Position numbers and translations under genes: made by a program. 32,000 nucleotides of DNA. Origin: an uncultured Bacteroidales bacterium (lineage in GTDB: Bacteria > Bacteroidota > Bacteroidia > Bacteroidales > Paludibacteraceae). The notes under the pieces were generated by a model. That model was not told where the DNA came from. It ran no database searches and saw nothing but the letters and a program-made list of their open reading frames with translations. Below are positions 101 to 16,328 of this stretch, in pieces; within the stretch, counting starts at the first letter, position 1, and every line of letters begins with the position of its first letter. The stretch spans positions 108,332-140,331 of the forward strand of contig CACYHE010000001.1 of assembly GCA_902774185.1 (NCBI GenBank), written 5' to 3'.

Positions 101-130
101 CCTATGTGTCCTTTCACCTTTCACCGTTCA
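72..130. repeat. Heptamer array cctttca, 4 + 3 units split by a 10-nt spacer (sense tgaaagg)
   Basis: cctttca cctttaa cctttca cctttca / tcctatgtgt / cctttca cctttca ccgttca. The start codon of the partial CDS sits at the spacer edge (98-100). Confidence 0.95.
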
Positions 131-132
131 AC

Positions 133-2445
133 TTACTTACATCCTTCATTGGGGTCGAACCATGCCGGGATATTGAAGTTCTCTTCGGGATCGTATCCTA
201 AATCGGGGTCATTGAGCACTTTCTGCAGATAGATCGCACAGATAGGCAGGGCAGAGTTGGCACCCTGACCGTATTTCATGGCGTCGAAGTGGATCTGATA
301 GTCCTCTCCGCCGCACCATGCACCGGAGACGAGAGACGGGGTGAAGCACATGAACCATCCGTCCGCATTCTCATTGGACGTACCAGTCTTACCACCCATC
401 GGCGCTTTGATACCGTATTTATACCGCATACGGATACCCGTTCCGACGGTATTGGTGACGCTGTCTTTGCCTAAGACGGACTGTAACATATAGGTCATCT
501 TATAGGCGGTCGTCTCGCTGATGATCTCATGCGTCTTGGGCGTGAAGGAGGCTATGACGTTTCCGTTACTGTCTTCAATACGCGTCACGTAGAGCGGTTC
601 GGTTCGGATACCTTTGTTGGCAAAAGTGGTATATGCGTCCACCATCTCTTCCACACTCACCTCACACGGACCCAGACAGAGCGACACGACGGGGTCTATC
701 TGCCCTTTGATACCGAAGGACCGCATCAGTTTGACTAACTGCTCGGGCGTGTAGAGGGACATGATATAAGCAGACATCCAGTTGGATGATATCTGAAGAC
801 CCCATTTGAAGTCATGTATCTCGTACTGGTGTTCGGCGTGCGTGTCCGCCGGGGTCCATATACTGTCGTTTGGCAGCACGAAGGAGACGGAGTCATAGAC
901 CATCGAGTCGCAGGGCCACATGCCTTCGTCCATCGCCAGAGTGAAGAGGTAAGGCTTGACGGTAGAACCGATCTGACGACGACCTTTGGTGGTCATGTCG
1001 TACTGGAACTGCTCGAAGTTAGGTCCGCCCACATAGGCTTTGACGTGACCCGTATGGGGATCCATCGACATGAATCCGCAGCGCAGGAAACTCTTCTGCC
1101 AACGGATCGAGTCGTAGGGTGTGAGCATGGTGTCCACCATGCCTTGGTAAGTGAACATCCGCATCGGACGGGGTTCGTAGAACGTGCGCAGGATCGAGTC
1201 ATGGGCAATGCCGGCTTTCTTCATGAGGCGGTACCGGTCGGTCTGCTTCATGGCTTTCTCCATCGTTGCCTGCATGTCGAAGGCATGGGCTCCTTTGCCT
1301 AACTGTTTCCGGGAGGGTTCGGAGAAAGGTGCATAGCGTTTGCGTTTCAACTCATTGTCGAAGTCTTTCTGCAGCGCACTCATGTGTTCGTTCACCGCCT
1401 CCTCGGCGTAACGTTGCATACGCGAATCGATGGTGGTGTAGATCTTCAAACCATCCTGGTAGATATCGTATTTGGAACCGTCGGGTTTGCGGTATTTCTC
1501 GCAAAAACCATAGAGCGGATTATTCTCCCATTGCTGCTTATCGATGCTGTACTGCAACTTGTTCCAAGACGGATAATCGCTCTCACGCGGTTCTTTGGCT
1601 GTAAGTGTAAGTCGCAGATACTCACGGAAATAAGGCGCGATACCTTGTTTGTGATCGACGGAACTGAAATGCAACTCCAGCGGTAAGGCAGACACGGAAT
1701 CACGGGTTGCTTCGTCGATATAACCGTACTTCGCCATCTGACTGAGGACGGTGTTCCGACGGTTCTTCGCCCGCTCCGGATGACGACGGGGGTTGTAGTA
1801 CGAAGGGTTCTTACACATGCCCACTAACATTGCCGATTCTTCGATCTTGAGGTTCTTGGGCGTGGTGTTGAAGTAGATCTTGGCCGCCGACTGGATACCT
1901 ACGGCATTATAGAGAAAGTCGAACTGGTTGAGGTACATCAGCAGGATCTCATCCTTGGAGTAGAGTCGTTCCAACTTGGTAGCGATGACCCATTCGATGG
2001 GTTTCTGCATGGCGCGCTCCATGGTGTTGTTGGCACGCGGTGACCATAACTGCTTGGATAACTGCTGGGTAAGCGTACTGCCACCACCGGCTTTACCCAT
2101 CTTCATGATGGCACGGAACATGGATTTGAAGTCGATGCCGGTATGGGTGTAGAAACGGGCGTCTTCGGTAGCGATGAGCGCCATGATGAGCGTGTCGTTC
2201 AGGTCACTGTACTGCACGCCGACACGGTTCTCGTACCGGTAATAACGACCCAAGGACTGATGGTCCGACGAGATAATCTCGCTGGCGAAGGTGTTCTTCG
2301 GGTTCTGTAACTCCTCCAAGGGCGGTAAGTAACCCAATGCGCCTTTGGTGATGAGCCACATGATGAGCCAGACGGCCACTATTCCTACTACGAAGATACT
2401 CCAGAACCAAATCAGGAATTTCTTATACCACGGTTTCTTCTCCAT
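133..2445 (-). CDS. mrcA: Class A penicillin-binding protein 1A (bifunctional transglycosylase/transpeptidase)
   Basis: GT51 motifs EDARFYTHTGID, GGSTLTQQ and RKxxE-like are present, as are transpeptidase motifs STVK, SSN and KTGT. I chose the start at MEKKPWYKKF (ATG 2443-2445) ahead of the TM helix. The 2446-2610 extension in the ORF track overlaps hemW and has no PBP-like sequence. Confidence 0.93.
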   Translation of the reverse strand: MEKKPWYKKFLIWFWSIFVVGIVAVWLIMWLITKGALGYLPPLEELQNPKNTFASEIISSDHQSLGRYYRYENRVGVQYSDLNDTLIMALIATEDARFYTHTGIDFKSMFRAIMKMGKAGGGSTLTQQLSKQLWSPRANNTMERAMQKPIEWVIATKLERLYSKDEILLMYLNQFDFLYNAVGIQSAAKIYFNTTPKNLKIEESAMLVGMCKNPSYYNPRRHPERAKNRRNTVLSQMAKYGYIDEATRDSVSALPLELHFSSVDHKQGIAPYFREYLRLTLTAKEPRESDYPSWNKLQYSIDKQQWENNPLYGFCEKYRKPDGSKYDIYQDGLKIYTTIDSRMQRYAEEAVNEHMSALQKDFDNELKRKRYAPFSEPSRKQLGKGAHAFDMQATMEKAMKQTDRYRLMKKAGIAHDSILRTFYEPRPMRMFTYQGMVDTMLTPYDSIRWQKSFLRCGFMSMDPHTGHVKAYVGGPNFEQFQYDMTTKGRRQIGSTVKPYLFTLAMDEGMWPCDSMVYDSVSFVLPNDSIWTPADTHAEHQYEIHDFKWGLQISSNWMSAYIMSLYTPEQLVKLMRSFGIKGQIDPVVSLCLGPCEVSVEEMVDAYTTFANKGIRTEPLYVTRIEDSNGNVIASFTPKTHEIISETTAYKMTYMLQSVLGKDSVTNTVGTGIRMRYKYGIKAPMGGKTGTSNENADGWFMCFTPSLVSGAWCGGEDYQIHFDAMKYGQGANSALPICAIYLQKVLNDPDLGYDPEENFNIPAWFDPNEGCK

Positions 2446-6379: not shown

Positions 6380-6409
6380 CTTTCAACTTTCAACTTTAAA
6401 CTTTCAACT
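6380..6409. repeat. Heptamer array ctttcaa x4 (sense ttgaaag), recN leader
   Basis: ctttcaa ctttcaa ctttaaa ctttcaa ct. Positions 6379-6409 are identical (31 nt) to 9024-9054 inside aroE. Confidence 0.95.
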
Positions 6410-6410
6410 G

Positions 6411-6436
6411 ACAGAATCAATTTCCGTTGATTCTGT
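6411..6436 (-). terminator. Perfect 10-bp stem / 6-nt loop hairpin spanning the DUF4835 stop codon
   Basis: acagaatcaa (6411-6420) and ttgattctgt (6427-6436) are exact reverse complements. The TGA stop at 6417-6419 lies inside the stem. There is no U-tract. Confidence 0.35.
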
Positions 6437-7343
6437 CATACGTTGCCTGCCGGGTGGCATCGATATCCATCAGCAGGTCATACACTGTTTTCTTCTCTTT
6501 GTCCGTTCCTTTGCTGAAGATATCCACCAACTCATCGGCTTTGGCGTCCAGGAAAGTGTTGATGACGTAGGTAGCGGGACGGGAACGATAGGCCTCTTTG
6601 AGCACCGGAATGCCTTCGGCGATACGTGCTCTGCCGTTGGTGGCATTGGCACTCATCTCGTCCAAACCCAAACGGTGGTACTCGTAATAGAAATTGCGGT
6701 ATTTCTTGAAAGACTCATCCAAGAGGTTATTAATCAGCGCGTAACGGTTTCGGTTACTGTTAAACGCCGTCCATCCTTTCTGTTCCTTATCGTCCATGCT
6801 CACACCTTGGCAGAGGGTGACGATCTGTTCGCATTGCTGGAAGAACGGGGTGCCGCCTAAACGCTGAAAACTATCGCAGTCATGCCCGATGATGAGATAA
6901 CAGTAGTACGCCAACATCGCCGTGAGGTTGGTAGAGAATGTGTTCTGCTGCCACTCGATGCGGTCAAACTCCTCGTACGTGAAATTGAAGTTTTCATCCC
7001 GGAAGTTGAGGAGCGGGGTGGTGTAGGTCGTGCCAAAGACGGGACGACGGCTCTGTAGTGTCATCTCGCAAAGGTACAGGTTGTCCTGCACGGCTTTTAC
7101 AACAAGTAACATGCTGCACTCGATTTTCTCATGCTCCGCAAAGGTCATGTTGGTCCATCGGTTCTGGTTCATGTACTCTTCGATGGCGGTCTTGAGGGTG
7201 GCAAAGGCCTGTTTGTTCGAACCCTCTATCTGATCCGAGTTCACCGTGACCGTGCATTTGAGTTCCTGGGCATGAAGGGGAGCACAGAACACAGAACACA
7301 GAACACAGACCGATAATGCTATGTATCTAAATTTTAAAATCAT
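6417..7343 (-). CDS. DUF4835 family protein (PorD-like), secreted
   Basis: Signal peptide MILKFRYIALSVCVLCSVFCAPLHA/QE followed by a VTVNSDQIEGSNKQAF...NQNRWT block typical of DUF4835. Its position next to recN is the usual Bacteroidota synteny. The family name is from memory. Confidence 0.8.
   Translation of the reverse strand: MILKFRYIALSVCVLCSVFCAPLHAQELKCTVTVNSDQIEGSNKQAFATLKTAIEEYMNQNRWTNMTFAEHEKIECSMLLVVKAVQDNLYLCEMTLQSRRPVFGTTYTTPLLNFRDENFNFTYEEFDRIEWQQNTFSTNLTAMLAYYCYLIIGHDCDSFQRLGGTPFFQQCEQIVTLCQGVSMDDKEQKGWTAFNSNRNRYALINNLLDESFKKYRNFYYEYHRLGLDEMSANATNGRARIAEGIPVLKEAYRSRPATYVINTFLDAKADELVDIFSKGTDKEKKTVYDLLMDIDATRQATYDRINGN
7283..7310. repeat. Heptamer array cacagaa x4 (sense ttctgtg)
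   Basis: cacagaa x3 followed by cacagac. It encodes VCVLCSVFC, the h-region of the DUF4835 signal peptide. Confidence 0.95.
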
Positions 7344-7366
7344 AAATCTAAAATCTCAAATATCAA
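7325..7366. repeat. Degenerate heptamer array atctaaa-type x6
   Basis: atctaaa ttttaaa atcataa atctaaa atctcaa atatcaa. It spans the DUF4835 start (7341-7343) and the junction to the DUF4831 stop. Confidence 0.8.
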
Positions 7367-8440
7367 TTACTTAGTAATTGATTCAATGTTTCCGGTTCGT
7401 TCGTTAAAGAGAATGACGGGCAGTTGATCGCCGGTAAAGAGTTCTTTGGGCAGCGGTACGTCGATCCCTAACTGGGCGATGGAGATGGTGCGTTGTGCCA
7501 ATTCGTTCTCATTATAACGAACGGTCACGACACCGTTTCCCGGCAGGTTATACACGATCTGCGAGAGGGCAGGAGCCGTTTCTCCTTTTTTCTTCTTCTT
7601 GTCAAGGGGTTCCGGTGCCGGTTTGGCATATTTCTGTGGTTGGAGCGCTACCTGCACGCGAATAGGCAGGGCTTCGAGATTCTCGGCATCGGTGAAACCG
7701 TTCTCAGGAGAGAAGAACCATACATGCTCGGTGCTATCGGGCAGGAAGCTTACTTCTTTATGGATGGTTCGGGTGGTCTTTTTGCCGATGAACAGTTCGG
7801 TCAGTGCCTGTTCCTGTTGGTCCAGTTCTTCCAACACCCGTTTCATCGCTGTGCCATCCGCAGGTGCATGTTCCACTTCGCCGCTCAGCAGGTACATACG
7901 GGTCTCCCGCAGATGGAAGATCTGCTGGGCGATCGCATTGGCTTGCGCCAAAGGAGACGCCGCTTTGAGTACTTCTTCGGGGTACGGCGCGACCTTGATG
8001 GAAGGCTGTTTCTTGCTGCACTCGTCTTTGGACGTATTACCCTTCACCCGTTCACCGTTCATCTTTTCATCCTTGTTCTGCGGCAAGTTATATCCGACCA
8101 GCAGTCCTTTCTCGTTGATGGTCAGAACCATCGGAACCTCGGACTCATGGGTCACCTTGTGCGGACGTGTACGGTCGGCATTGGTACGGGTCAAGACACG
8201 GGCACCGGTGAGGGTGTAGGTCGTCTTTGTCTCCTCAACGGCATTCGTGGCACCGATGAGGTCCGCTGCGAATGCTGCATAGGGACCTGCTTCTTGGTTC
8301 TCTACCTGATACGTGAAGTCAATGACCACTGTTGTCTGCGGTGCATAATACACCATCGCCGACTCATTGGGTGCCAGCACTTGTGCGTGGCTAGTACTGA
8401 TCATTACTGCTCCAAGGAGCACTAAAAAGAATTTTTTCAT
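7367..8440 (-). CDS. Secreted hypothetical protein, DUF4831-like
   Basis: 357-aa ORF with signal peptide MKKFFLVLLGAVMISTSHA/Q. The family assignment is from memory and is less certain than the CDS call. Confidence 0.75.
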   Translation of the reverse strand: MKKFFLVLLGAVMISTSHAQVLAPNESAMVYYAPQTTVVIDFTYQVENQEAGPYAAFAADLIGATNAVEETKTTYTLTGARVLTRTNADRTRPHKVTHESEVPMVLTINEKGLLVGYNLPQNKDEKMNGERVKGNTSKDECSKKQPSIKVAPYPEEVLKAASPLAQANAIAQQIFHLRETRMYLLSGEVEHAPADGTAMKRVLEELDQQEQALTELFIGKKTTRTIHKEVSFLPDSTEHVWFFSPENGFTDAENLEALPIRVQVALQPQKYAKPAPEPLDKKKKKGETAPALSQIVYNLPGNGVVTVRYNENELAQRTISIAQLGIDVPLPKELFTGDQLPVILFNERTGNIESITK

Positions 8441-8453
8441 ATATTTAGCAAAA

Positions 8454-9170
8454 TCAATTATTCCAAATCTTCCAAGCTTCTTTGGCTTGACCTGTTAACA
8501 TCTCTATTCCGTTCTGCGTTCGGACACCTTGTGCTTTGCCTTTACGCAAGAAGAGGGTCTCTTCGGGGTTGTAGATACAATCGTACAACAAATGTTGTGC
8601 CGAAAGGTGTTCGTAGGGTATCGGCGGACAAGTATCGATATCCGGATACATGCCTAATGGCGTACAGTTGACGATGACCGTATGGCGGTTCATGATGTCG
8701 GAATCCAAATCGTCGTACGTCAAGGTTCCTTCTGCAGCATGCCTACTGACAAGGGTAGGGACGATCCCTAACAGCCGTAACGCATAGCACACGGCTTTGG
8801 CGGCACCGCCAGTACCTAACACCAAGGCCTGTCGGTCTTGTTTGTGCAACAATGGTCTTATCGATTCCATGAATCCGATATAGTCGGTGTTGTAACCGGT
8901 TCGTTGATACACCACGTTTACGGCGCCTATCGCTTGTGCCGTCGGGTCGATACGATTCAGGTACGGGATAATCGCCTGTTTATACGGATACGTCACATTA
9001 AACCCGTCCAAATCGGACAAAAGTCTTTCAACTTTCAACTTTAAACTTTCAACTCTCGTTGGGTACAACGAGTACTCCGCCTCTATGCCTTCTGTCGCAA
9101 ATTTCTGATTGAAGAACTGCGCAGAGAACGAGTGTTCCAATGGAAATCCTATGATACCGAAGTGACGCAT
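8454..9170 (-). CDS. aroE: Shikimate dehydrogenase
   Basis: MRHFGIIGFPLEHSFS, GFNVTYPYK, GAVN and the NADP-binding GTGGAAKAV motif. It contains a translated heptamer array at 9025-9054 (RVESLKLKVER). Confidence 0.9.
   Translation of the reverse strand: MRHFGIIGFPLEHSFSAQFFNQKFATEGIEAEYSLYPTRVESLKLKVERLLSDLDGFNVTYPYKQAIIPYLNRIDPTAQAIGAVNVVYQRTGYNTDYIGFMESIRPLLHKQDRQALVLGTGGAAKAVCYALRLLGIVPTLVSRHAAEGTLTYDDLDSDIMNRHTVIVNCTPLGMYPDIDTCPPIPYEHLSAQHLLYDCIYNPEETLFLRKGKAQGVRTQNGIEMLTGQAKEAWKIWNN
9025..9054. repeat. Heptamer array ctttcaa x4, translated inside aroE
   Basis: ctttcaa ctttcaa ctttaaa ctttcaa ct. It is read in frame as RVESLKLKVER. Confidence 0.95.
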
Positions 9171-11719: not shown

Positions 11720-11749
11720 CTTTCAACTTTAAACTTTCAACTTTCAACT
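11720..11749. repeat. Heptamer array ctttcaa x4 (sense ttgaaag), ettA leader and folA 3' end
   Basis: ctttcaa ctttaaa ctttcaa ctttcaa ct. The flanks catttc...ctg are identical to those of array 6380-6409. Confidence 0.95.
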
Positions 11750-14203: not shown

Positions 14204-16294
14204 CTAGTATAGTTTATACGTTGTTTTGAGTACCTTGAACTCGGTACGACGGTTGATCTGGTTGCAGATCTCTTGTTTGTCAATCGGCAGACTGTTGATG
14301 AACGTCTCGTCCAGCACTTGCTCAACCGGTATCCACGGATATTGCTTGTTAAGCGCCTTGTCTGCCACCACCGGTTTGGTTTTACCGTATCCTACCGGCG
14401 TCAGACGTTCTTTCTCAATACCGTGTTGGATGAGGTAGTCACAGCAACTCTGTGCACGTTTCTGACTTAACTCGTTGTTGAACTCGTCCGTACCCTTCAA
14501 GTCCGTATGGGCACTGAGCTCAATGGTGATATTGGGGTTGTCGTTAAGCAGTTTAACCAATTTCTCCATCTCTTTCTCCGAGGCCTGCGTCAACTCCCAT
14601 CGACCGAACTCATAGAACACATTCTCCATCGTGACGGGTCGGCTAATCGGTTGCAGCACAAAGTCCATCGTGTAGGTCTTGCTGTCCTTCAAACCGAAGG
14701 TGTTCCATTGCTCTTTGGCGTTCAGATAACCTCTGGCGGTGACTAACATGACGTACTTGACGTCTTGTTGCAGTTTGATCTTGTACTTACCGTCCCGACG
14801 GGCGTTGAGTTTACTGTTCGTGCCGTCGGATCCCACAATACGCAACATGGCGTCGGCGATAGGATTGCCCAAACCGTCGTTCACCGTCCCTTGTGCTATG
14901 AACTCCATCTCAGGCAAGGTAAACTGGTAGATCTTATCCATCCCTTTCTTATCGCCTCGGTTGGAGGAGAAGAAACCGTTCTGACTGTTTCCGGCAAAAG
15001 TGATACCGAAGTCATCGCCGGCTCCGTTGAAGGGCGCCCCCATGTTAAACAGGATCCACACGACGCTGTCTTTGTAGGTCGTGTCACGTGTGGCTTTGAA
15101 GATATCCAGACCTCCGTAACCCGGATGACCGTTCGAGGCAAAATAGAGCGTACCGTCAGCGTGTACATAAGGGAACATCTCATCGGCACTCGTGTTGATT
15201 CCGGCTTCCAAAGGATGCGCGTTCACCCATTGGTTTTCTGCCAACTCCGCCATCCAGATATCTTTTCCTCCTTGACCGCCCGGTGCATCACTGGCGAAAT
15301 AGAGCGTGTCACCCATCGGACTGAGCGCAGGATGACCCACCGTGATCGTACTGTCGGTAAATAGTTTGACTTCCTGTGCTTCGCCCCATTCACCGCTTGC
15401 CCGTTCACTACAGTAGATCTTAGCACCCAGATCCTGACCGTTGATAGGCTTGGAGTAAGTGAAATACATCATCCTGCCGTCCTTGGTAAAGCAGCACGCA
15501 CCCATCTCTGCGTTCGCTCCGCCTTTACCACTGGTCGAGTCATTCTGTTGTTCCTCTTCCTCTTGATCCCCGTACAAACCCTCTGCCGGTTCTATCTCTT
15601 CCCATTCTCCGGCTGCGTTCTTGCGTGTCTGGTAGAGTTGGAAAAGCTGTTGACCCGTCACGTTACTGGCGCGTTTGAGTTTTTTCGTTCCCTTCTCTTT
15701 GGACTCCTGCCGGTTTGATGTGAACATGAGTGCGTCGTTTTGATCACCGATGAACATCGGGGCGAAGTTACTGCTGCGTTTCTTGTTAAACATCTTCGCT
15801 TCGCTTACCTTGTACCGGCTGGTCTCTTTCTTCCACTCGTCCATCTTCGTGCAAGCGTACTTGCCGGCCTGCGCTACATAGTCATCGGGATGGGCTTCCA
15901 GATAGGAATCGTAGTGCTTGATGGCATCTTTGTATTTACCTTGGTTCTGCAGCACTTGTGCGGCATGCAGGTAAATCGTCGAGTCCTGTAACTGGTACTT
16001 ACAACGCAATGCACTCTGGTAAGCATTAGCAGCACGGGGATTATTGATATAGCGGTAACACTCCGCCTGACGGTAAGCGACGTAGCCCTTCAAGTCCCGT
16101 TGCTTCTGCGTACTGAGCCGACTATAACAGGACTTGTAGATCTCTCCGGCCGCATAGTACTCCCCGATGGCGTATTTCTTATCCGCCCGCTTGATACGTT
16201 GCTGGATAGAGCACCCGCTCAGAAGAATTGAAAATTGAAAAATGAAAATTGAAAGGAGAAAACCTTTCACCTTTGACCTATCACTTTTCAACAT
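14204..16294 (-). CDS. OmpA-family lipoprotein with TPR, TolB-like beta-propeller, CarboxypepD_reg-like and OmpA C-terminal domains
   Basis: Lipobox LLSGC, TPR-like AECYRYINNPRAANAYQSAL, WD40-like repeats (YFASD/YFASN), and a C-terminal OmpA motif (LSAHTDLKGTDEFNNELSQKRAQS). I chose the ATG at 16292-16294 (MLKSDRSKVKGFLL...). The track start at 16315 is a GTG inside a repeat. Confidence 0.88.
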   Translation of the reverse strand: MLKSDRSKVKGFLLSIFIFQFSILLSGCSIQQRIKRADKKYAIGEYYAAGEIYKSCYSRLSTQKQRDLKGYVAYRQAECYRYINNPRAANAYQSALRCKYQLQDSTIYLHAAQVLQNQGKYKDAIKHYDSYLEAHPDDYVAQAGKYACTKMDEWKKETSRYKVSEAKMFNKKRSSNFAPMFIGDQNDALMFTSNRQESKEKGTKKLKRASNVTGQQLFQLYQTRKNAAGEWEEIEPAEGLYGDQEEEEQQNDSTSGKGGANAEMGACCFTKDGRMMYFTYSKPINGQDLGAKIYCSERASGEWGEAQEVKLFTDSTITVGHPALSPMGDTLYFASDAPGGQGGKDIWMAELAENQWVNAHPLEAGINTSADEMFPYVHADGTLYFASNGHPGYGGLDIFKATRDTTYKDSVVWILFNMGAPFNGAGDDFGITFAGNSQNGFFSSNRGDKKGMDKIYQFTLPEMEFIAQGTVNDGLGNPIADAMLRIVGSDGTNSKLNARRDGKYKIKLQQDVKYVMLVTARGYLNAKEQWNTFGLKDSKTYTMDFVLQPISRPVTMENVFYEFGRWELTQASEKEMEKLVKLLNDNPNITIELSAHTDLKGTDEFNNELSQKRAQSCCDYLIQHGIEKERLTPVGYGKTKPVVADKALNKQYPWIPVEQVLDETFINSLPIDKQEICNQINRRTEFKVLKTTYKLY
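16228..16255. repeat. Heptamer array ttgaaaa x4 (sense ttttcaa)
   Basis: ttgaaaa ttgaaaa atgaaaa ttgaaag. It encodes LSIFIFQFS of the OmpA-family lipoprotein signal peptide. Confidence 0.95.
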
Positions 16295-16328
16295 ATATTT
16301 CCTTTCACTTTTCACCTTTCACCTTTCA
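16263..16328. repeat. Heptamer array cctttca, 4 + 4 units split by a 10-nt spacer (sense tgaaagg)
   Basis: cctttca cctttga cctatca cttttca / acatatattt / cctttca cttttca cctttca cctttca. The spacer carries the ATG at 16292-16294. The last unit carries the DUF1015 TGA stop (16326-16328). Confidence 0.95.

Follow-up and report, generated by a model that had tools for sequence, protein, structure and literature searches.

The 32,000-nucleotide (nt) stretch analysed here (the window; positions 108,332 to 140,331 of contig CACYHE010000001.1, or G000:C1:108332-140331 in our numbering) comes from an uncultured Bacteroidales bacterium of the Paludibacteraceae (assembly GCA_902774185.1; 2.19 Mb in 35 contigs, 47.7% G+C), and the text below concerns the 5' end of one of its minus-strand genes, porD, where the predicted signal peptide is written in heptanucleotide repeats. 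The open reading frame (ORF) at 6417..7343 (-) encodes a 308-amino-acid (aa) protein with a Pfam DUF4835 match (PF16119, E 3e-105) spanning residues 26-305, the mature coding region together with the stop codon occupying 6417..7268 (-); it also matches the NCBIfam equivalog NF052317 (T9SS_PorD) with 364 bits against a cut-off of 170, and this DUF4835 protein is PorD, a type IX secretion system (T9SS) component. In P. gingivalis, its counterpart bears a signal peptide and resides in the periplasm, where it partners PorW (PMC8754138).

Between the upstream gene, a member of the DUF4831 family (7367..8440 (-); PF16115, E 1.9e-59; stop codon TAA at 7367-7369), and the mature part of PorD, the DNA reads as a succession of short modules. 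An earlier note on this DNA had proposed that two different heptamer arrays make up this segment, and both of them are borne out. A degenerate period-7 tract of TTTAGAT-like units (7325..7366 (-)) holds an AT-rich spacer of 23 nt that forms its 5' part (TTGATA TTTGAGA TTTTAGA TTT; 7344..7366 (-)), the start codon ATG (7341..7343 (-), within a degenerate unit ATTTATG) and most of the basic n-region (ILKFRY); Tandem Repeats Finder (TRF), run on the window, reports it as 7325-7361 (period 7, 5.3 copies, 70% matches, score 39), and its period-7 self-match over 7325-7366 amounts to 0.71, a value reached by 2 of 20,000 shuffles, with all other periods except 14 giving 0.19-0.48. The second array, (TCTGTGT)x3.9 at 7283..7309 (-), is perfect (TRF: period 7, 3.9 copies, 100% matches; unit CACAGAA on the plus strand, i.e., TTCTGTG on the sense, minus, strand), corresponds to codons 12-20 of porD and encodes the CVLCSVFC of the hydrophobic core (h-region). 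What had not been brought out earlier is that a non-repeat linker of 17 nt (ATACATAGCATTATCGG; 7310..7326 (-)), the "head" of the h-region cassette, which encodes YIALS, is common to other cassettes and is overlapped at 7325-7326 by the 3' end of the degenerate tract, separates the two arrays, and that the perfect array runs into a c-region (CTCCCCTTCATGCC; 7269..7282 (-)) which completes the codons A-P-L-H-A and is also found in the cassette of an amidase_3 gene. As the linker and the shared c-region accompany the arrays, the porD signal is a cassette, i.e., more than just two arrays.

The N-terminus encoded in this way, MILKFRYIALSVCVLCSVFCAPLHA↓QELKC (arrows denote the predicted cleavage point), looks like a signal peptide for signal peptidase I (SPase I) in all of its parts: the initial Met is followed by basic residues (K4 and R6 in MILKFRY), the hydrophobic core IALSVCVLCSVFC contains no charged residue (its array-encoded part having a mean Kyte-Doolittle hydropathy of 2.71), and L-H-A↓Q, with the predicted cleavage after Ala25 (7269-7271) and before Gln26 (7266-7268), fits a small residue at -1, a permissive one at -3 and Gln at +1, the latter being the Q-rule described for SPase I sites of Bacteroidetes (PMC5837995). 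None of the 134 database relatives, and none of the orthologues from the 19 congeners, departs from an A or G followed by Q, and each has a signal of 18-26 aa and then an invariant QE[IL]xC. A lipoprotein reading of the three Cys of the core was rejected upon inspection: the residue at -1 is V, L or F, there is no lipobox, and the conserved A↓Q follows.

The Cys-rich core of the PorD signal is a property of the TTCTGTG unit, not of porD. A heptamer array regains its frame every 21 nt and, consequently, encodes the same cyclic heptapeptide in all three frames (FCVLCSV for (TTCTGTG)n, HRTQNTE on the opposite strand, the unit being free of stop codons on both), just as the note had reasoned. Within every 21 nt, each base of the unit occupies the second codon position exactly once, which makes the T-rich strand always hydrophobic and the A-rich strand hydrophilic, whatever the phase; in TTCTGTG the residues F, V, L and V come from the four T, Cys comes from the two G that lie between T, and the polar residues of the opposite strand come from its four A. 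This provides a simple rule for which orientation could survive where, as the number of T in a unit equals the number of residues with T at the second codon position, i.e., the hydrophobic ones.

The porD cassette has close counterparts elsewhere in the same genome. An amidase_3 gene and a TraB/GumN gene, both on the same contig (C1) at 8-12 kb from porD, share with it the linker ATACATAGCATTATCGG, four units and a similar c-region, the peptide common to the three genes being (K/R)YIALS(V/I)CVLCSVFC(A/V)P(L/I)(H/K)A↓Q, and the amidase_3 start lies in a tract of AAATCTA type, the reverse complement of the unit that forms the n-region of porD. The linker is identical or nearly so ahead of the arrays of amidase_3, TraB/GumN and the porD orthologues L024, L027 and L029, and in an alignment of eight cassettes (five gene families, three species) CATTAT.G plus the array is invariant.

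These cassettes belong to a much larger dispersed family. TRF returns 2400 rows for the whole genome, 827 of them with period 7, in 175 canonical units and with a modal length of 30-33 nt; the TTCTGTG unit accounts for 29 TRF arrays, while a pattern search for TCTGTGY in runs of three units or more yields at least 44 arrays, 28 of which are exactly 28 nt (four units) long. Their distribution is sharply sorted by orientation: 13 of the 44 are sense arrays within 100 nt of a gene start and none is sense and internal, so that the genome-wide search for (TTCTGTG)n at 5' gene ends that the note had called for finds every sense array inside an ORF (13/13) at such an end, whereas 25 are antisense and internal, being read as RTQNTEH-like loops, one is antisense at a 5' end, and five are intergenic. 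The lone antisense 5'-end array (G000:C16:78955-79000) reads MALKEHRTQSTEHR..., i.e., a hydrophilic extension ahead of a hydrophobic stretch. All eight sense-copy hosts scanned against Pfam are envelope proteins of unrelated families (amidase_3, TraB/GumN, DUF5074, LptE, TonB-dependent receptor, OMP beta-barrel, DUF2490 and TolC-like OEP). LptE and DUF5074 have a lipobox behind the array, so that SPase II as well as SPase I signals are served by the module.

The same sorting is seen when all the period-7 arrays located inside ORFs of this genome are divided into those within 90 nt of the start and those that are internal. Arrays with more T than A in the sense strand outnumber the opposite kind by 50 to 19 near starts and are outnumbered by 194 to 54 internally (Fisher p 1e-14), the median Kyte-Doolittle hydropathy is 1.12 near starts as opposed to -0.85 internally, and strongly hydrophobic arrays make up 27 of 70 near starts versus 4 of 257 internally (Fisher p 1e-16). 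A crude screen finds a period-7 array in the core of 33 of the genome's 516 signal-like N-termini, with TTTCAAT (13), as well as TTCTGTG and its variants, being the main core units. Within the window itself, the heuristic recovers exactly three N-termini with an h-region inside a period-7 array (-1906..124, 6417..7343 and 14204..16315), which agrees with the note's count of three repeat-encoded signal peptides; that of DUF4831 is not among them, as the note had also held.

Several further regularities accompany this family. The TCTGTGT (25/33), TTTCAAT (30/38), CTTTCAA (41/91) and CCTTTCA (18/49) families all have a modal length of exactly four units (28 nt), and the same internal variant unit recurs at several loci (e.g., CTTTCAA CTTTCAA CTTTAAA CTTTCAA). 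The 31 TCTGTGY arrays that lie outside signal peptides have a conserved 9-nt head, GTAAWYMGG, directly 5', which in the coding sense gives ...TD(L/W)(I/L)... after the RTQNTEH stretch. The module has a defined length and a conserved 5' head, and in porD the cassette replaces prior sequence and does not constitute a clean insertion. Taken together, the shared flanks, the fixed four-unit length and the use of one unit in both orientations speak for the arrays being copies of each other and against local slippage as their source.

Two other kinds of repeats were encountered alongside. A second module, TCTGTCAGCG[A/C]AGCGGTCTGT, is present in 41 copies in the genome, usually between TCTGTGY units and sometimes itself in tandem (e.g., C2:82527-82560(-), C5:10686-10730(-) and C16:15564-15610(-)), and has the appearance of a composite partner to these heptamers. 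The window also contains three near-identical (CTTTCAA)x4.3 arrays: one in the gap between the porD stop and the recN start (6380-6409), one inside the aroE ORF (9025-9054) and one at the 11737/11747 gene junction (11720-11749).

Among orthologues, the signal peptide of porD differs in type. PorD of the 19 congener species representatives is 50-81% identical to that of the window and carries an ordinary signal of 18-25 aa ending in A/G↓QE[IL]xC in every case, the VCVLCSVFC type being found in none of the 19. The stop codon of DUF4831 and the start of porD overlap as ATGA in 12 of the 19, as well as in L021 and L029, which is likely the ancestral state, and the 23-nt spacer of the window stands in place of that overlap; in the window, L019, L026, L027 and L028 the spacer exceeds 15 nt and is a heptamer tract, and the homologous spacer of L028 is a clear 6.4-unit TTTAGGA/TTTCAGA array. 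In this respect, the earlier note needs to be corrected: the arrays did not create a porD signal de novo, as an existing conventional signal was replaced. In a large protein collection, IALSVC.L[CY]SV[LF]C is present in 25 of 139 distinct orthologues (78-91% identical), others having cores such as LCSLFLVP (TTGTTCY units), ISYWPLA (CTATTAG units) or IFLVSLIG (no obvious period). The note would have taken the sharing of VCVLCSVFC among orthologues as evidence against a repeat origin; taken literally, such sharing exists in these 25, but what is shared is the same DNA cassette, and its occurrence on a tree of the mature parts (a quick IQ-TREE run, drawn with midpoint rooting only) is patchy, the TTCTGTG type needing at least 12 changes, four of which are forced by well-supported branches, with near-identical tips differing in signal type.

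L027 and L029, from other species and about 75% identical at the DNA level, possess the same linker and four degenerate TCTGTRY units, that of L029 sitting behind the ancestral MRK n-region and the ATGA overlap, while L028 has a porD-type n-region tract with a different core, and these combinations show that the modules have been combined independently. In yet another species, L019 (G015:C37), the same signal has been built independently from three arrays, with (AGTCGAA)3.3 and (AAAGATA)2.7 in the spacer, 47 nt upstream, and (TTTTCAT)3.7 as the core LLVFSFFIFQFS (codons 13-21). As regards the units themselves, (TTCTGTG)x3 with at most two mismatches has 53 matches in the genome of the window and 0 or 1 in each of 60 other species of the genus, whereas the looser TCTGTRY x3 turns up in 93 of the genus's 267 species genomes, mostly as TCTGTAY, and TTTCAAT x3 in 30 of 61, a distribution that implies repertoires consisting of lineage-specific variants of genus-wide families. 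One congener TCTGTAY array (G094:C11:259993-260083) has at least 13 units, against the norm of four.

Arguably the most telling comparison is provided by the closest relatives. The protein of the window (P0128) has a mature part that is identical to, or one residue off, that of P0125, P0130 and P0134, yet the signal of these three is MKKFFFILLAISYWPLAFS, unlike the window's. Over 7 kb, the corresponding DNA (L021 and L022) shares 94-96% identity with the window, and divergence of the two alleles is confined to the segment bounded by GAATCAAT, close to where DUF4831 ends, and by CAGGAACTC, with which the coding of mature PorD begins; given these limits, the swap covers the last DUF4831 codons, the junction and the whole signal, and ends at the A↓Q cleavage site. 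The presence of a different signal at the same spot in a sister lineage indicates that signal peptides here behave as swappable repeat cassettes. More distant proteins (P0002 and P0122, 91% identical) carry the TTCTGTG cassette, which, by parsimony, suggests that it was the L021 lineage that replaced it. The L021 signal DNA is 88% identical to that of G023, another species, although the rest of the gene is at 64-81%, and the window shares 84% identity with L027/L029 in the TTCTGTG cassette and 74-79% in the mature part; the greater likeness between species of the cassette (84-88%) than of the gene body (74-81%) might reflect exchange or homogenisation, but the segments are short and the excess is only suggestive.

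The number of units, on the other hand, seems to be constant. Loss or gain of a unit would shift the porD frame (3 units ending it after 31 codons, 5 after 73 and 2 after 66), and four units are seen in every allele, namely in the window, L024 and L025, for which the DNA was read, in the further alleles represented by protein variants (P0121-P0132, recorded on about 48 contigs), and in L027 and L029. A short product, P0124, is accounted for by a metagenome contig that ends inside the array (L041:1-40), not by a frameshift: assemblies break at the dispersed cassettes, which then leads gene callers to a false GTG start, as in L041. One strain variant of porD (L023:426-560, on a JGI 3300033463 contig) has a private in-frame insert of 36 nt (CTTAACTCGCGGGCTCGTACGATCTGCTTCGCGTTG) in the array, yielding ...SVCVLNSRARTICFALLCSVLC..., and the idea of a repeated mini-element was rejected upon finding no copy of it in the genome of the window, just chance matches of at most 14 nt.

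Several other explanations had to be weighed against the one favoured here. Were the true start of porD to lie downstream, or the protein not to be exported, the array would be an untranslated leader, and the note had named a downstream start as something that would undo its claim. Bacteroidales lack Shine-Dalgarno sites, and the general uncertainty of start calls in this order is the sole point in favour of such a reading, the probability of which we consider practically negligible. The ATG at 7341-7343 is the first start after an in-frame TGA located five codons 5' of it and the only usable ATG; the next one is codon 58, inside a Pfam domain that begins at residue 26, and the sole other start-type codon before mature PorD is a GTG within the array, which would leave no signal. 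Moreover, every orthologue has an N-terminal signal ending at the same A/G↓Q, and PorD is periplasmic (PMC8754138). That the array might act as a phase-variation switch, with a one-unit change turning porD off or on in the manner of contingency loci, is suggested by its location in the 5' coding region, by a unit length that is not a multiple of three and by the truncation that a unit change would entail; nevertheless, there are just four units, there are four in every allele and even in the 75%-identical species L027 and L029, the one short product is a contig end, and the units are heterogeneous in relatives (T/C, G/A), which lowers slippage. A copy number that is always four makes phase variation unlikely, to the extent that we would call it extremely so.

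An origin of the array in situ, by slippage on T-rich signal codons, with the orientation sorting reflecting local composition and nothing being imported, is the alternative to which we would grant the most, even though it, too, is improbable. Signal-peptide DNA is T-rich anyway, A-rich 7-mers of loops could have been amplified likewise, L005 and L006 have period-6 Leu-Ala repeats that are clearly local, and heptanucleotides are, at least in the summary given in PMC4679880, a classic over-represented class of long simple sequence repeats (SSRs) ascribed to polymerase slippage. Against this stands the fact that one unit and its exact reverse complement occur in 13 signal peptides and 25 loops, that the same non-repeat linker and c-region are found in unrelated genes, and that the copies outside signal peptides share the GTAAWYMGG head; slippage would give a locus-specific unit and a broad spread of copy numbers, but 44 loci share the unit, 28 of the 44 have four copies of it, and the four-unit length dominates several unit families. 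MutS and MutL are also intact (MutL and two MutS homologues being present in the genome), and loss of mismatch repair was rejected as a cause of the repeats. It could, finally, be argued that translation of the arrays as a signal peptide is a by-product, since most of the 827 period-7 arrays lie at or near gene ends and the TAACTGA repeats of other bacteria sit directly upstream of start codons (PMC4679880). However, the sister lineage, whose mature protein is identical, possesses neither tract and has retained the ATGA overlap, there are 175 different units, with many arrays deep inside ORFs, and the mRNA around the porD start (-30..+75) shows nothing unusual in its structure (minimum free energy -14.3 kcal/mol, z +0.5; the alternative allele is similar), which leaves this possibility very unlikely.

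What we favour, with a probability of roughly 80%, is that short repeat modules make up the 5' end of porD as a mosaic and together form a working Sec/SPase I signal, and that this cassette has replaced an ordinary one. The degenerate AT-rich heptamer tract supplies the 23-nt spacer, the ATG and the basic n-region, and the 17-nt linker, the four-unit TCTGTGY module as hydrophobic core and the short c-region ending in A↓Q complete the predicted signal, the h-region module being one copy of the dispersed family of modules of about 30-37 nt. Related lineages carry other cassettes at the porD site, and the modules would have spread by copying (gene conversion or an insertion process of some kind), not by local slippage. 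As hydropathy is determined by the strand, selection would confine sense copies to signal peptides and antisense ones to surface loops that tolerate them. The anatomy, the module family, the orientation sorting and the allelic replacement are direct observations; a few points nevertheless weigh against this account. The residue at -3 is Leu, which is acceptable, not ideal; the export and cleavage of the predicted 25-residue signal peptide of PorD, although very likely, are read from sequence; the gene calls and the signal-peptide screen are our own heuristics; the direction of the swap between the window and L021 is suggested by outgroup parsimony on an unrooted basis; and the constant copy number is that of assemblies, i.e., of consensus sequences.

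A further step, which we put forward tentatively and regard as possible, yet rather doubtful, would be that an active copy-and-paste or gene conversion process, limited in length, generates the head-plus-four-heptamer modules (about 30-37 nt) in this genus of Paludibacteraceae. Such a process would seed identical micro-modules throughout the genome in both orientations, and selection at the protein level would turn them into interchangeable signal cassettes and loop inserts.

The genome-wide phenomenon to which the porD cassette belongs is apparently undescribed, a literature search having returned nothing on signal peptides encoded by heptamer repeats and nothing on Paludibacteraceae repeats, and none of the systems with which it was compared combines short fixed-length heptamer modules, dispersal among unrelated single-copy genes, orientation-sorted signal cores and the allelic swap of a whole signal. 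The heptanucleotide long SSRs of Mrazek, Guo & Shah (2007), in so far as they are represented in PMC4679880, are likewise tandem, over-represented (827 of the 2400 rows here) and mostly found outside genes or at their edges; what sets the present arrays apart from that account are the many units, the approximately four-unit fixed length, identical arrays with shared flanks at dozens of loci, translation in frame, an orientation that sets the peptide context, and no copy-number variation in the assemblies. The TAACTGA direct repeats, which are intergenic, known from Beggiatoaceae, cyanobacteria and a few Bacteroidetes, and of unexplained origin and spread (PMC4679880), resemble them in comprising 2-6 heptamer copies, in being abundant in one lineage and in lying a few nt upstream of start codons, but that system has a single unit with stops in the forward orientation and a possibly regulatory role in intergenic DNA (PMC4679880), while here there are 175 units, and TTCTGTG, stop-free on both strands, is translated as signal core or loops. 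Upstream of hmw1A and hmw2A of H. influenzae, (ATCTTTC)n forms phase-variable heptanucleotide repeats (PMC8262952, PMC12721329), which are similarly 7-nt tandem repeats at the 5' end of envelope-protein genes; those tracts, located in the promoter or 5' untranslated region, are long and differ in copy number both among strains and within them, unlike the invariant, translated four units of porD.

Other parallels concern the insertion or reuse of coding segments. Rickettsia palindromic elements, reportedly described by Ogata and colleagues in 2000 as inserted in frame into ORFs, are said to be similar in that short dispersed repeats are accommodated in frame by unrelated genes and tolerated by the fold, although they are palindromes of 100-150 bp and not 30-nt heptamer arrays, and we know of no case in which they supply signal peptides or are sorted by orientation. 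Conserved 5' leader or signal cassettes are a feature of the Mycoplasma vlp/vsp and Borrelia lipoprotein families, where near-identical signal-coding 5' segments precede different mature regions; those, however, are paralogous families shaped by duplication and recombination, whereas in the present case the genes are unrelated single-copy housekeeping ones and the units microsatellite-like.

Signal peptides tolerate sequence change and are usually thought to drift by point mutation. In porD, a housekeeping secretion-system gene, modules made of 7-base repeats have taken the place of the whole signal, the start codon and the junction with the upstream gene, and about a dozen unrelated envelope proteins make use of the same modules. 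There is a practical warning in this, as both assemblies and start-codon calls break at heptamer modules, and also an opportunity, since the natural signal variants on an identical mature protein could be used to compare export efficiency. If the proposed active process is real, it would amount to a new class of mobile module, coding and ultra-small, and to a new route by which signals are made and swapped between strains and species; in any event, porD offers a concrete, testable case of coding sequence born from microsatellite-like DNA.

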